A stretch of DNA of 35,748 nt from a virus (lineage: Duplodnaviria > Caudoviricetes). Position numbers and translations under genes: made by a program. Location: positions 1 through 35,748 of IMG/VR virus record IMGVR_UViG_3300049381_000004. One strand, 5' to 3'. This document shows positions 1,171 through 8,710 of this stretch, one piece after another (within the stretch, counting starts at the first letter, position 1; every line of letters starts with the position of its first letter). The notes below the pieces were generated by a model. That model was not told the DNA's origin and did not search any database. It was given only the letters and a program-made list of their open reading frames with translations.

Positions 1171-1658
1171 CTGCTCGATCTATCGACCTGCCGGGCTGCG
1201 TGAAGCCGGACACAACTGAGCGCGTGCACTTCTACGAGAACGACTTTTACCCGTTCAGCAACTTCTCGTGCTTCTCAATTCGGTGGTTCGCGAAGACATT
1301 CGCTGCTTCCGAGTATGTCTACCACTGGGAAAAGTTCATCCGCACGGCTCCAGAGATCGCCACAGCCATCGAGTTCGCTCCCTCCGCGCATGAGGCATTC
1401 AAGCTTGCCGAACGCCACAAGGAGCTGAGACGCAAAGACTGGAATACCGTGAAAGTCGACGTGATGCGACAAATCCTGCGCGCAAAGGTCGACCAGCACG
1501 AGTACGTGCGTCGCAAGTTGCTGCAGACCGGAGACCGCGAACTCGTCGAGGACTCTTGGAGAGATTCTTTTTGGGGCTGGGGCCCGCAACGCGATGGCCT
1601 GAACATGCTCGGAAAGCTCTGGATGGAGTTGCGCTCAGCGCTGAGGGAATCAACATGA
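1167..1658 (+). CDS. NADAR (YbiA-like) family N-glycosidase / ADP-ribosyl hydrolase
   Basis: FSNF, SEYVYHWEKF, RKDWNTVKVDVM, LLQTGDRELVEDS..D.FWG, GLNMLGKLWMELR are NADAR motifs; ATG 1167 after GGAGG. Confidence 0.92.
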   Translation: MTARSIDLPGCVKPDTTERVHFYENDFYPFSNFSCFSIRWFAKTFAASEYVYHWEKFIRTAPEIATAIEFAPSAHEAFKLAERHKELRRKDWNTVKVDVMRQILRAKVDQHEYVRRKLLQTGDRELVEDSWRDSFWGWGPQRDGLNMLGKLWMELRSALREST

Positions 1659-1942
1659 CCTCCGAATCCACCCGCGCCATCGCGGCCGACATCGCGCGGG
1701 AGTTCAAGGATCATCCGGAGCGGTGGAAGCAAGGATCATTCGGGTTCCGCGAGTCTGGCGGTGCATGTCTAGATCGGCATATCACTTCACGATGCAACGA
1801 TAGATGGGACGGTCTCGCGTCCGTTGTGTGCGCGCACATGGGATTTGCAAGCCGCATGGGTCTGTGGAATTGGAACGATGCTCCCGACCGGACGGTCCAC
1901 GACATCATCGCCCTCTGCGAGAAGGTGGCTGCCAATGGCTGA
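1655..1942 (+). CDS. Phage hypothetical protein, DUF6197-like
   Basis: WKQG...GACL and C-terminal WNDAPDRTVHDIIAL motif; ATGA overlap. Confidence 0.6.
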   Translation: MTSESTRAIAADIAREFKDHPERWKQGSFGFRESGGACLDRHITSRCNDRWDGLASVVCAHMGFASRMGLWNWNDAPDRTVHDIIALCEKVAANG

Positions 1943-2420
1943 GCAGACCAACATCAGCTGGTGCGACAGCAGTAAGTACAGGCCTGCTGAGTTCGGCCCG
2001 CCTGCGATGCCACCGCGTGACGGAGACGCCCAGCAGGCAAGGCAGCGCGTGAATGTTATGGTCCGCACTGGGAGGCTGGAGCATCCAAATGCCCTGCCCT
2101 GCGCAGACTGCGGTCATGTGTGGTCCGCTGGCGAGCGACGCCATGAATACGACCATCACCACGGATACTCCGCTGCTCATCACTATTGCGTAGAGCCGGT
2201 CTGCACAACCTGTCACGCCAAGCGTGACAACCCTCTCGCAACCAGAAAGCACTGCAAGATTGGCCACCCCCTGAGTGGAGAAAATCTCTATCTCGACCCT
2301 GATGGCCACCGTCACTGCCGGCAGTGTATGCGAGATCACGACAGGAAGCGCCCTCCTAGAGGCAGGGAGTATTGGCAACGAATCAATGCGAAGCGCAGGA
2401 AGGCGGTATCACATGGCTGA
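1935..2420 (+). CDS. HNH-type Zn-binding endonuclease carrying a DUF5131-like N-terminal peptide
   Basis: CADC...DHHHGY...VEPVCTTCH (HNH-like) plus HCKIGHPLSGENL...CRQC Zn domain; starts MAEQTNISWCDS. Confidence 0.75.
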   Translation: MAEQTNISWCDSSKYRPAEFGPPAMPPRDGDAQQARQRVNVMVRTGRLEHPNALPCADCGHVWSAGERRHEYDHHHGYSAAHHYCVEPVCTTCHAKRDNPLATRKHCKIGHPLSGENLYLDPDGHRHCRQCMRDHDRKRPPRGREYWQRINAKRRKAVSHG

Positions 2421-3231
2421 TAGAACAGCAATTTCTTGGTGCGATTCCACGCACAACCCCGTGGTGGGTTGCGAGCGCATCAGCCCGGCTTGTGATCACT
2501 GCTACGCCGCTGACTGGGCCAAACGCAGCGGCCAAGCAGAACTTTGGCAAGGCGAGCGCCGCCGCACCACCGAAGCGAACTGGCGCAAGCCGCTGCAGTG
2601 GGAGCGGGAGCACGAGACATTCTTTGCTGCGAACGGTCGGCGGCGGCGCGTGTTCTGCGCATCACTCGCGGACGTGTTCGACAACCAGTGGGATCCACAG
2701 TGGCGTGCCGATCTGTTTGCAATGATCAGAGCCACGCCGCACCTCATCTGGTTGCTATTGACCAAGAGAATTGGCAACGCCTCAAAGATGTTGCCGCCTG
2801 ATTGGGATGTTGGAACGGTCGGTGGATATCGGCACTATGCGTACCCCAACGTCTGGATCGGCGCTACCATCGCCAACCAGGACGAGGCCGACCGCGATAT
2901 ACCGAAGCTGCTGGCCACACCGGCGCGCGTGCGGTTTCTCTCGTGCGAGCCGCTGCTGGGTCCGATCGATCTGGACTGCTGGCCGGAGTCTGGCTGCTCA
3001 CGCAACTGGATCGACAGCGATCCCGGGATTGACTGGGTGATAGCCGGCGGCGAGAGCGGCGGCAAGGCGCGGCCGTCACACCCTGATTGGTTCAGGTCTC
3101 TTAAGCAGCAATGTTCAAGCGCTGGAGTTGCTTTCTTTATGAAACAAATGGGAGGCGCACGAGATAAGCGAGAAGATCTGCATTCGATTCCCGAAGACCT
3201 CAGAGTTAGGGAGTGGCCAGATGCGCGCTAA
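2413..3231 (+). CDS. DUF5131 (phage Gp37/Gp68 family, three-Cys motif) protein
   Basis: ISWCDSTHNPVVGCERISPACDHCYA, RVFCASLADVF, LLLTKR, NVWIG, RFLSCEPLLG, IDWVIAGGESG, FFMKQ. Confidence 0.95.
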   Translation: MADRTAISWCDSTHNPVVGCERISPACDHCYAADWAKRSGQAELWQGERRRTTEANWRKPLQWEREHETFFAANGRRRRVFCASLADVFDNQWDPQWRADLFAMIRATPHLIWLLLTKRIGNASKMLPPDWDVGTVGGYRHYAYPNVWIGATIANQDEADRDIPKLLATPARVRFLSCEPLLGPIDLDCWPESGCSRNWIDSDPGIDWVIAGGESGGKARPSHPDWFRSLKQQCSSAGVAFFMKQMGGARDKREDLHSIPEDLRVREWPDAR

Positions 3232-3706
3232 GATAGCGGTCAGCGACTACAATCGCAGATACCACATCGCGAATCGAGACAGGCTGCTGAAGAGAATGGC
3301 GCGGCTCAGAGCTAGTCGAAAGGCCGGTCCGTATGCGGTTGATTGGGCGGTTCAGAAGCTACTGAGCGATGCCAAGCGTCGCGCGAATCGCTACTCGATG
3401 GTGTTCGATTTGGATCTTCGCTCTATTCACAAGCCAACACATTGCCCGGTGTTCGGTTTTGAACTCGTATATCAGGCGTCTGGCAAGAGGCTGCCGAACA
3501 GCGCATCGCTTGATCGAATCGACAGCGGCAAGGGATACACCACGGACAACGTGTGGATAATCTCTTGGCGCGCAAATCAAGTAAAAACCGATGCCACCGC
3601 GGATGAACTAGAGACTGTCTGCGCCGCAATGCGCAAGAGATCCGCCGGCCGCACGCTCGACGGCGTGGTGCACGATGCGTTTCCTGACATAGGAGAATCA
3701 CGATGA
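3221..3706 (+). CDS. HNH-like (beta-beta-alpha-Me) endonuclease with DUF5131-like C-terminal tail
   Basis: HCPVFG...SASLDRIDSGKGYTTDNVWIISWRANQVK; ends KRSAGRTLDGVVHDAFP. Confidence 0.75.
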   Translation: MRAKIAVSDYNRRYHIANRDRLLKRMARLRASRKAGPYAVDWAVQKLLSDAKRRANRYSMVFDLDLRSIHKPTHCPVFGFELVYQASGKRLPNSASLDRIDSGKGYTTDNVWIISWRANQVKTDATADELETVCAAMRKRSAGRTLDGVVHDAFPDIGESR

Positions 3707-7444: not shown

Positions 7445-7632
7445 GACAGCAGCCGAAGATCAAGCTGCAGGAGTGGGCGGCGCGAAGGTTCGAGCCGCCG
7501 CCGTGCCGGCGCACCCTTTACCGTTGGGTCAAGAACTCGCTGATCGAGCCACAGCCGACCCGCATCGGGCGCGAGTACTGGGTGGAGCGCGACGCGCACT
7601 GCGTCGACAGGAATGGCAATGTCACCTCGTAA
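7441..7632 (+). CDS. xis: Excisionase (lambda Xis-like winged helix)
   Basis: IKLQEWAARRFEPPPCRRTLYRWVKNSLIEPQPTRIGREYWVE; overlaps the int start as in lambda. Confidence 0.92.
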   Translation: MRQQPKIKLQEWAARRFEPPPCRRTLYRWVKNSLIEPQPTRIGREYWVERDAHCVDRNGNVTS

Positions 7633-8710
7633 GCGGCACTTCCGCAGCAACGGTCTTCCCGACAACCTCTCTCTGCGTGCAGACGGGTACTACGTCTACA
7701 CCAGCCCCATCAACAGGCACCAGAAGGGTCTGGGCCGTGATCGGCTCGCCGCAATCAAGTTCGCGCGCTCTGCCAACGTCGAGGTGCAGCGCATGCGTGG
7801 CGAGCTGGACGGTGCCGCATGGGTGCGCGGCGTCACGGCTCGCAGCTGGGGCGCGTGGCTCGATCGGTTCCAGGAGCTGCTCGACGAGAAGGACTCGACG
7901 AAGGCCACGCAGAACCAGCGCAAGTCTCTTATGAAGCGCGCCCGAGCGCAGTGGCCGGCGCAAATCGCAATCACAGAGATCAGCGTCGCCATGGTTGCCG
8001 ATGCCATCAGAGCGCTCACGAAAGATGGCAAGCCTACGATGGCGCAGGCCTACCGCTCCTTCCTCGGCAAGTGCTTCCGCTCTGCCATCGCCAACGGCTG
8101 GCGCCCAGACGATCCGACCGCGGTCACCGATGTGGTGATCGTGCGCACCAAGCGCGCCAGGCTCAGCATCGATCATGCGCGCGCAATCCTCGCAGATCCG
8201 CAGACCAAGCCATGGCTGCGCAACGCCATCGCCCTTGCACTGGTGACCGGTCAACGCCGGGAGGATATCGCGCGATCTCGACGCTCAGACGTGCGAGAGG
8301 GCTGCTGGTGGGTGCACCAGCGCAAGACCGGCAACCGGGTCGCGATCCCTACCAGCATCCGGTTGGATATCCTGGGCATGTCGCTCGCCGAGGTGCTGGA
8401 GCAATGCCGCAGCACCGGCATCCTGAGTCCCTACCTGATCCACCAGACCTTCGATCGTGACCGCGGGAAGCCGGTGGCGATTCGTGCGTTCACGAACATG
8501 TTCACGGCGTGCGTGAAGCGTCTGGGGATCGACTGGGGCGACAAGTCACCGCCGACGTTCCATGAGCTGCGCAGCCTTTCGAAGCGCCTGTACGACGCCC
8601 AGGGAGGCGTGGATACGAAGCAGTTGCTGGGGCATCGCAGCGATGGGGCGGCGGCGAAGTATGCTGACGCTCGCGGTGAGTGGGTGCGTGTCTCGGTACG
8701 CGTTGGGTAG
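7613..8710 (+). CDS. int: Lambda-type tyrosine integrase
   Basis: N-terminal arm-binding domain (LPDNL..GYYVY.SP...GLG); catalytic R (TGQRREDI), K (QRKTG), HxxR (FHELRSLS), H (LLGH), Y (KYADAR); start may be 7619. Confidence 0.97.
   Translation: MAMSPRKRHFRSNGLPDNLSLRADGYYVYTSPINRHQKGLGRDRLAAIKFARSANVEVQRMRGELDGAAWVRGVTARSWGAWLDRFQELLDEKDSTKATQNQRKSLMKRARAQWPAQIAITEISVAMVADAIRALTKDGKPTMAQAYRSFLGKCFRSAIANGWRPDDPTAVTDVVIVRTKRARLSIDHARAILADPQTKPWLRNAIALALVTGQRREDIARSRRSDVREGCWWVHQRKTGNRVAIPTSIRLDILGMSLAEVLEQCRSTGILSPYLIHQTFDRDRGKPVAIRAFTNMFTACVKRLGIDWGDKSPPTFHELRSLSKRLYDAQGGVDTKQLLGHRSDGAAAKYADARGEWVRVSVRVG

Follow-up and report, generated by a model that had tools for sequence, protein, structure and literature searches.

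A predicted HNH homing element carrying a replacement gene start at the 5' end of a phage DUF5131 gene

The gene immediately upstream of DUF5131 in a 35,748-nt stretch of Caudoviricetes DNA (IMG/VR record IMGVR_UViG_3300049381_000004, positions 1 to 35,748; hereafter the window) is probably an intron-less homing element, encoding an HNH-type nuclease, that entered the start of DUF5131 and carries a replacement for that start. This reading comes from sequence comparison of the window with homologous loci. Coordinates are collected in Table 1.

Table 1. Features around the two DUF5131 starts and the DUF5131 3' end of the window
Feature	Position	Strand	Basis or remark
DUF6197 upstream gene	1655..1942	+	Pfam 1.4e-6; stop overlaps first start by 8 nt
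Shine-Dalgarno-like GAAGG of upstream (putative native DUF5131) start	1921..1925	+	sequence
DUF5131 codons 1-12 heading HNH ORF, putative native start	1935..1970	+	native status from relatives only
Stub/HNH junction (putative)	after codon 12, possibly 13	+
HNH-type endonuclease ORF (P0001), 161 aa	1935..2420	+	PHROG HNH 1e-7; invariant columns; fold match
Putative 478-nt insert comprising HNH body, second RBS and replacement codons 1-12	1971..2448	+	repeat spacing, GC3, homologous pairs in relatives; approximate right edge, between codon 12 and about 19
Replacement RBS, start and first 12 DUF5131 codons	2399..2448	+	8-nt overlap with HNH stop
Predicted 5'-nuclease target, codons W9-P16; W-C-D-S-T-H-N-P in the window	2437..2460	+	stub end points and allele signature
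Full-length DUF5131 (P0002; Gp37/Gp68, radical-SAM-like), 272 aa	2413..3231	+	PF07505 5e-78
Low-GC3 DUF5131 3' end, putative replacement end from second nuclease	3088..3231	+	left edge approximate
Second endonuclease ORF	3221..3706	+	phrog_3322 endonuclease 4e-30; endonuclease VII 3e-14; 11-nt overlap with DUF5131 stop
In-frame fusion of AGRTLDGVVHDAFP, a DUF5131-type C-terminal peptide, to second nuclease; putative native 3' end	3641..3706	+

Two DUF5131 starts and the nuclease between them

The HNH and DUF5131 ORFs have a common N-terminus, MA-x-x-T-x-ISWCDS, and their starts are 478 nt apart. The copies read MAEQTNISWCDS at 1935-1970 (HNH ORF) and MADRTAISWCDS at 2413-2448 (DUF5131). The sequence confirmed both ORFs and both ISWCDS peptides of the original prediction, including silent differences in four of the six ISWCDS codons, two of which are Ser switches from AGC to TCN. 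GAAGG precedes both starts at equal distance, and the starts are accompanied by a 22-nt direct repeat (73%). Both starts consist of ATGGCTGA, in which the internal TGA is the stop codon of the preceding gene, such that each start overlaps that gene by 8 nt. The upstream copy had a third-position GC of 0.89 over codons 2-11 (9 codons each), against 0.11 for the downstream copy. A contig from a sequencing run of another study spans 1894-2964 with one difference, which rules out misassembly of the double start. The radical-SAM subgroup given in Table 1 follows the listing of DUF5131 in the accessible text of PMC9477430. The window also contains a temperate-phage accessory region, with a NADAR-domain gene at 1134-1658, a YbcO-like nuclease at 273-578 and a lambda-type integrase at 7613-8710.

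P0001 contains a CxxC...HEYDH...CxxCH core plus a C-terminal C-H-C-C zinc finger. Residues C56, C59, H70, H74, C90, C93 and H94 were found in 105/105 aligned homologues and D73 in 104/105, while the likely central position of the H-N-H motif (82, our own assignment) was His in 95/105 and Asn in 6/105. A conserved first-strand His and a metal-binding His in the helix, set in a zinc-finger frame, are the hallmarks of the HNH (beta-beta-alpha-Me) class. A Pfam search with P0001 gave no match, its PHROG HNH matches were weak (1e-7), and no match was obtained against 50,697 annotated phage records. The structure model of P0001 (pLDDT 88.9) gave no Foldseek match at E 0.001. In a structural comparison its best fold match, a weak one, was the Gme HNH nickase 4h9d (Z 5.2, rmsd 4.8, 82 aligned), and HNH-type nucleases, identified by title, accounted for eight of the nine top matches, all of them below the trust level of the comparison tool. 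A group I or II intron was rejected, as no Rfam match was found at E 1 in 1800-3300 and splicing is unneeded. Full-length DUF5131 follows unspliced, and the nuclease gene lies outside any intron or intein, as is characteristic of free-standing homing endonuclease genes. Its presence at this site is optional at the level of the family, with empty alleles in relatives and none found for the phage of the window. P0001 is likely an HNH-type nuclease, and we predict that its gene is a free-standing homing endonuclease gene.

The invariant nuclease motifs over 105 homologues would also suit a nuclease kept mainly as a weapon that cuts DUF5131 in co-infecting or resident phages and for which homing would be incidental. 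An intron nuclease of phage PhiPA3 reportedly has such a role (accessible text of PMC11620839). We regard this explanation as improbable here; the present data fit selfish spread equally, and DUF5131 seems dispensable in some loci.

P0001 has 462 homologues, and start types were counted in the best 120 of them. Within these 120, 53 had the full I-x-W start and 18 a shorter piece, 29 had the family's own start and 20 had another. HNH proteins headed by a DUF5131 start peptide (5-14 codons), for which a survey had been proposed, therefore make up 71 of the best 120 of 462 homologues, and the 53 full and 18 shorter peptides rule out chance resemblance of the two starts in the window. The possibility that the peptide is the N-terminus of the HNH family itself was excluded by the own starts of at least 29/120 homologues, by stub lengths of 5-14 codons and by 18 different stub-to-core spacings, as well as by one stub identical to an empty allele (L202 and L201, see below).

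We fetched 148 loci, which gave 125 distinct loci including the window after the window's own phage and duplicates had been collapsed. DUF5131 lay directly downstream of the HNH gene in 96 of the 125 (96/114 of those with room downstream), was not directly downstream in 18, and could not be scored in 11 with insufficient room. By eye, 8 of the 18 unlinked loci retain a DUF5131 C-terminal remnant, often nuclease-fused. The DUF5131 body is gone, and the HNH gene is followed by or fused to the C-terminal remnant, in L052, L064, L069, L076, L103, L106, L117 and L177. In the 96 linked loci the stranded DUF5131 start was in frame with the nuclease in 30, out of frame in 21 and not detected in 45 (L137 and L188, false hits of the pattern, were dropped from these counts, and L095 was reassigned). 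In-frame capture of the start, as first proposed from the window, was therefore found in 30/96 linked loci but is one outcome only, since in many family members an out-of-frame stub sits ahead of the nuclease's own start. In L057, L079, L104, L134, L160 and L172 the out-of-frame stub stops a few codons inside the nuclease gene, which would permit translational coupling to the nuclease's own start. On the nuclease tree, a short alignment of low resolution, in-frame and own-start forms were intermixed, with 22 changes versus 23-33 in shuffles. Because the two forms are mixed and the spacings are so varied, the data point to many separate stub-nuclease fusions. The same HNH-DUF5131 layout occurs on a plasmid of an Alicyclobacillus isolate. 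In L067, L071, L134, L156 and L158 the DUF5131 match is split near model positions 85-110 by ~100-120 extra bases.

Native and replacement starts and the mobility of the element

A pattern scan recovered nine loci with a common upstream gene end, of which seven are empty, one contains this HNH gene and one a reverse-strand HNH gene. The HNH stub of L202 is identical to the start of the empty allele L201 over 33/33 nt (codons 1-11) and then diverges, with the same upstream gene in both loci. This identity indicates that the upstream copy is the native start in relatives, and it bears out for these relatives the proposals that the element is an intron-less insertion in the DUF5131 start and that the HNH gene uses the native RBS and start. 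In 46 stub/replacement pairs, including about three that were mis-anchored, GC3 was 0.72 for the stub and 0.51 for the replacement (p 1e-6). The lower GC3 supports a downstream start that is element-borne in relatives. When eight Burkholderia-phage-like loci were compared with the empty majority, the stubs matched at 25-29 of 33 nt and the replacements at 19-23; empty alleles of this group match their own majority at 28.6 of 33 nt. A displaced native end that equals that of empty relatives, together with a foreign end in use, characterizes elements of the mORF and WHO type, and is seen here in the 33/33 nt identity, the GC3 difference and the asymmetry of the majority matches.

The reverse-strand HNH gene is 93-100% identical in five loci that have four unrelated upstream flanks (49-54% over 300 nt). 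The DUF5131 bodies of these loci are 77-91% alike, and the break always follows codon 12. Because the unit is near-identical across unrelated flanks and breaks after codon 12, it appears to move with the stub as its left edge. This different HNH gene is inserted backwards after DUF5131 codon 12 in L204 (1554-2213, minus strand), L211, L222, L224, L227 and the related L214. The sense strand of L204 is open from the native to the replacement start (234 aa), and those of L211 and L227 likewise over the visible part. Five loci of the window's own HNH family have unrelated flanks (47-54%) and nucleases at 64-76%, which is consistent with older moves.

For the window's own locus, a blastn search of phage records matched only the DUF5131 body, a search with the upstream gene found only the same phage, and the contigs of 8 of 20 listed sequencing runs, which show presence only, contained no joint of 1970 to 2449. 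The empty junction expected for this phage, 1935-1970 joined directly to about 2449, was accordingly absent from both the phage records and these contigs. We infer that the junction in the window lies after 1970, with DUF5131 resuming at about 2449. Seven empty alleles (L199, L200, L205, L219, L234, L235 and L257) have an element-like start, with NPF, a TCG Ser or, in L257, the tail of the nuclease; they may have arisen by clean nuclease loss through recombination between the two starts, or by conversion without the nuclease.

We propose that the nuclease would nick or cut the conserved W-x-D-x-T-F-N-P codons of an empty DUF5131 gene, near codons 12-16, and that the element would then be copied in, the short gene start and the gene body providing the left and right arms, respectively. 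On the recipient side, repair would retain the upstream gene, the RBS and the first 5-15 codons, and from the donor it would add the nuclease and the DUF5131 start; the pattern is seen in relatives and the process is deduced from it. Because repair would keep the recipient start and add that of the donor, the element would be independent of the upstream gene. The stranded start is found either as an out-of-frame stub before the nuclease start or as an in-frame fusion, the layout observed in the window, where the fusion gives the nuclease the RBS and an 8-nt overlap. The second RBS and overlapping start, also observed, restore full-length DUF5131. The upstream copy would be safe since it is interrupted, and the downstream copy since it differs at the target.

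Tight linkage and the stop/start overlap also fit an operon pair, in which the HNH protein would be a domesticated partner or passenger and the double start a product of local duplication or of stray recombination between similar starts. Several observations make this improbable. This HNH gene was present at 0/46 DUF5131 loci found via P0002 and at 3/80 found via a relative, and an upstream nuclease was adjacent in 1/78 motif-sampled DUF5131 loci (of 121 fetched, 40 had too little flank and 3 were not DUF5131). On the tree of DUF5131 bodies, occupied alleles are scattered (27 changes among 184 labelled rows), and the same element occurs in unrelated flanks. The site is used by four nuclease types in both orientations, and in some loci the DUF5131 body is lost while the nuclease remains between its two ends. 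Finally, the copies are too unlike for recent duplication, yet a stub can equal an empty allele exactly. Upstream of DUF5131 in L289 and L292 lie an endonuclease VII with a DUF5131 stub start and a LAGLIDADG-like ORF.

Target site and candidate immunity

The original prediction held that ISWCDS had been recoded to resist cleavage. Silent divergence between stub and replacement was 62% (122/196 codons), compared to 60% among 32 diverse empty alleles and 27% among 72 related, Burkholderia-phage-like empties. We rejected the count of silent changes as proof of recoding, as 62% is at the 60% background, and the signature that distinguishes the alleles peaks elsewhere, centred on codons 12-16 (H-T-F-N-P); selection of the ISWCDS changes for cleavage resistance is thus conjectural. 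Stubs end at codon 5-14 in 72 proteins and none goes beyond, with one out-of-frame stub reaching N15. T-[F/W]-N-P was departed from in 60/88 occupied alleles (and kept in 28/88) versus 13/103 empty alleles. With independent pairs on a body-only tree the difference was 10.7 versus 1.0 (median p 0.006). Control windows in the body lean the same way, most at 3.5 or less and up to 6.8 versus 1.4 pairs, and part of the target signal is therefore general divergence; 72 of the 105 empty alleles come from one Burkholderia-phage-like group. Asn15 was changed to Ser, by a two-base change, in 14/93 HNH alleles, 5/6 reverse-HNH alleles and 0/105 empties. NPF in place of NPW was discarded as an immunity mark, as it is present in 12/105 empty alleles and so is not specific. 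The stub ends and the signature narrow the predicted target of the HNH nuclease to about 25 bp near codons 12-16.

The window reads T-H-N-P-V at this position, and the T-H-N-P form also occurs in two empty alleles. Since GC-ending codons resume at codon 13 and predominate through codon 20, the foreign part may stop at codon 12 in the window. Protection in the window could lie in codons 7-12, as had been suggested, or further on. There is an even chance that the replacement start is simply the donor's old foreign allele and that immunity comes from codons 13-17 or a deeper site rather than from ISWCDS, an explanation that is compatible with a homing element and contests the recoding step only. 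Both the background level of silent divergence and the signature peak at codons 12-16 are as this explanation predicts. It also has precedents in T4, where free-standing nucleases cut hundreds of bases away (accessible text of PMC2988022) and where polymorphisms in the replacement copy of MobA failed to block nicking (accessible text of bioRxiv 10.1101/2022.08.31.505936). An old foreign allele is harder to reconcile with the GC-ending codons 13-20 of the window, after a foreign part that may end at codon 12, and with the Burkholderia-phage-like empties, in which silent differences amount to 27% and the majority match is 28.6/33 nt versus 19-23 for element-borne starts.

A subset of relatives differs at the target in another manner. 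One extra base at Phe14 places the first 13 codons out of frame with the body in 7/93 HNH-linked alleles and 0/105 empties (p 0.004), and one allele (L187) has two extra bases; the window's own DUF5131 allele is in frame at this codon. A scan blind to nucleases found the +1 form in 7 stretches (6 distinct) versus about 1300 in frame. Where enough flank was available, 4/5 of these +1 alleles adjoin a nuclease versus 1/78 in-frame controls (p 1e-5). The four nucleases comprise two of this HNH family (already counted), one endonuclease VII and one that is LAGLIDADG-like by a motif read by eye, its PHROG label being HNH/homing endonuclease. There are 12 distinct +1 alleles (L093, L099, L153, L158, L169, L172, L182, L183, L289, L290, L292 and L293, all at DUF5131 codon 14), with TTT-TAA in 7 and TTT-CAA in 5. 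All 11 complete bodies are intact (240-331 aa, 34-58% identical), as is the 13-codon start in 12/12. The 12 alleles therefore share a shift site although the genes have diverged, and both frames are conserved, which is the pattern by which programmed frameshift sites are recognized. RBS pairing was stronger in +1 alleles than in in-frame occupied alleles (-10.0 versus -7.9 kcal/mol, p 0.012), although host bias is possible. TTT versus TTC at Phe14 was rejected as a signature, being non-significant in independent pairs (4.1 versus 1.6, p 0.45).

We predict that the Phe14 insertion confers immunity and is read via +1 ribosomal frameshifting, in which tRNA-Phe could re-pair one base on at UUU-U/C. 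The accessible text of PMC5009743, in which 'savior' indels are defined, treats UUU_U as a minority, weaker RF2 shift site. The other explanation, which we judge to be somewhat less than evenly probable, is that the insertions mark dead or leaky pseudogenes left by faulty nick repair, or homopolymer sequencing errors. Each insertion is indeed one T added to a T run, L187 has two extra bases, some GTG, TTG or ATG lies in the body frame near the start in 9/11 complete +1 alleles, and DUF5131 can be lost in some loci. Decay or error would nevertheless have struck the same codon every time, with enrichment beside nucleases, and would have left 11 bodies of such low identity and 12 starts intact behind a more strongly pairing RBS.

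The DUF5131 3' end and comparison with known elements

The original prediction overlooked a second nuclease gene, which is likely the mirror image of the HNH element. The ORF at 3221-3706 ends in AGRTLDGVVHDAFP, and motifs of this type form the C-terminus of 66/103 empty DUF5131 genes. A DUF5131-type ending was found in 25/33 closest homologues of the second nuclease versus 3/66 distant ones, and L037 has the same 3' layout as the window; for this family there are loci for two members, without an empty pair. GC3 of the window's DUF5131 is 0.33-0.40 at codons 226-255 versus 0.60-0.87 at codons 16-225. Because the second nuclease ends with a DUF5131 C-terminus and GC3 drops at codons 226-255, both ends of DUF5131 in the window have likely been replaced, each native end now being fused to a nuclease. 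The second nuclease would have achieved at the 3' end what the HNH element did at the start.

As far as the accessible texts of the sources cited here describe them, three systems work like the DUF5131 HNH element. The T4 MobA element (genes 39/60; bioRxiv 10.1101/2022.08.31.505936) is likewise an intron-less phage HNH gene inside an ORF, in which the new start and the nuclease stop overlap by 8-32 nt in different frames. It too carries a copy of the displaced target that has diverged (homR, 67-81%), can be replaced by other nuclease families and has its site shielded by translational recoding. However, MobA splits a topoisomerase gene mid-way into two working subunits, whereas here the stub is 5-15 codons, often nuclease-fused, and the gene stays whole; and MobA immunity is a 50-nt bypass, whereas the immunity predicted here comes from point changes, with a one-base insertion instead in a subset. 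Of the topoisomerase target, split subunits and bypass cassette that define the MobA class none is present, the target being DUF5131 and its ORF gap-free in the window. Fungal mORFs (Allomyces atp6; Glomus atp6, atp9, cox2 and nad3; PMC3630166) combine an endonuclease with a foreign gene end, and the displaced native end matches empty relatives (PMC3630166, PMC7487136). The 3' element of the window would be their direct analogue, and the 5' element their mirror, with the native start fused to the nuclease. In yeast WHO at FBA1 (PMC7282813) a duplicated gene fragment is likewise the second homology arm and a resistant allele end is swapped in. WHO acts at a 3' end with about 400 bp and an intein-like nuclease of shown cleavage, whereas here a 36-45-bp 5' arm accompanies a predicted HNH nuclease. 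Whereas mORF and WHO elements replace the 3' ends of fungal genes, the HNH element acts on a phage gene and at its 5' end; of the two elements in the window, the one at 3221-3706 alone occupies a 3' end. The T4 seg/mob free-standing endonucleases (PMC2988022) are also intron-less, overlap their neighbours and need no promoter of their own, but they occupy intergenic positions and cleave at distances of hundreds to thousands of bases, and no replacement start is described for them in that text.

By analogy, then, the DUF5131 HNH element works like MobA, mORFs and WHO but belongs to none of them, because it has another target, acts at a 5' end, keeps the gene whole and fuses the native start to the nuclease. 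Start capture of this kind is not described in the accessible text of PMC12724721, PMC10448857 or PMC2988022, and no nuclease at the DUF5131 start was reported in the full-text literature searched, subscription papers being mostly outside the search; DUF5131 itself was named there in a single paper, in a row of a table. The four nuclease types at the DUF5131 start, the two-ended replacement in the window and the candidate frameshift immunity are new.

Taken together, these comparisons suggest a broader picture, which we put forward tentatively and at just under even probability. At both of its ends DUF5131 would be a hotspot for homing by unrelated nucleases, with gene ends of 12-25 codons as their portable homology arms. 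Elements of three nuclease families (HNH, endonuclease VII and LAGLIDADG-like) would be immune via one extra base at Phe14, read by a +1 frameshift. If true, the insertion would parallel the T4 gene 60 bypass on the scale of a single nucleotide, and programmed frameshifts would repeatedly originate from selfish nucleases. Translation across the Phe14 insertions, if it occurs, would link the emergence of a programmed frameshift to evasion of a nuclease; the case for such a link has so far rested on the gene 60 bypass. The ends of DUF5131 genes should be treated with caution as chimeric, and annotation may mistake frameshifted copies for pseudogenes. Nature provides hundreds of occupied/empty pairs, with a target of about 25 bp. 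One conserved gene supplying both repair arms would explain how such elements spread among mosaic temperate phages without homologous neighbours.
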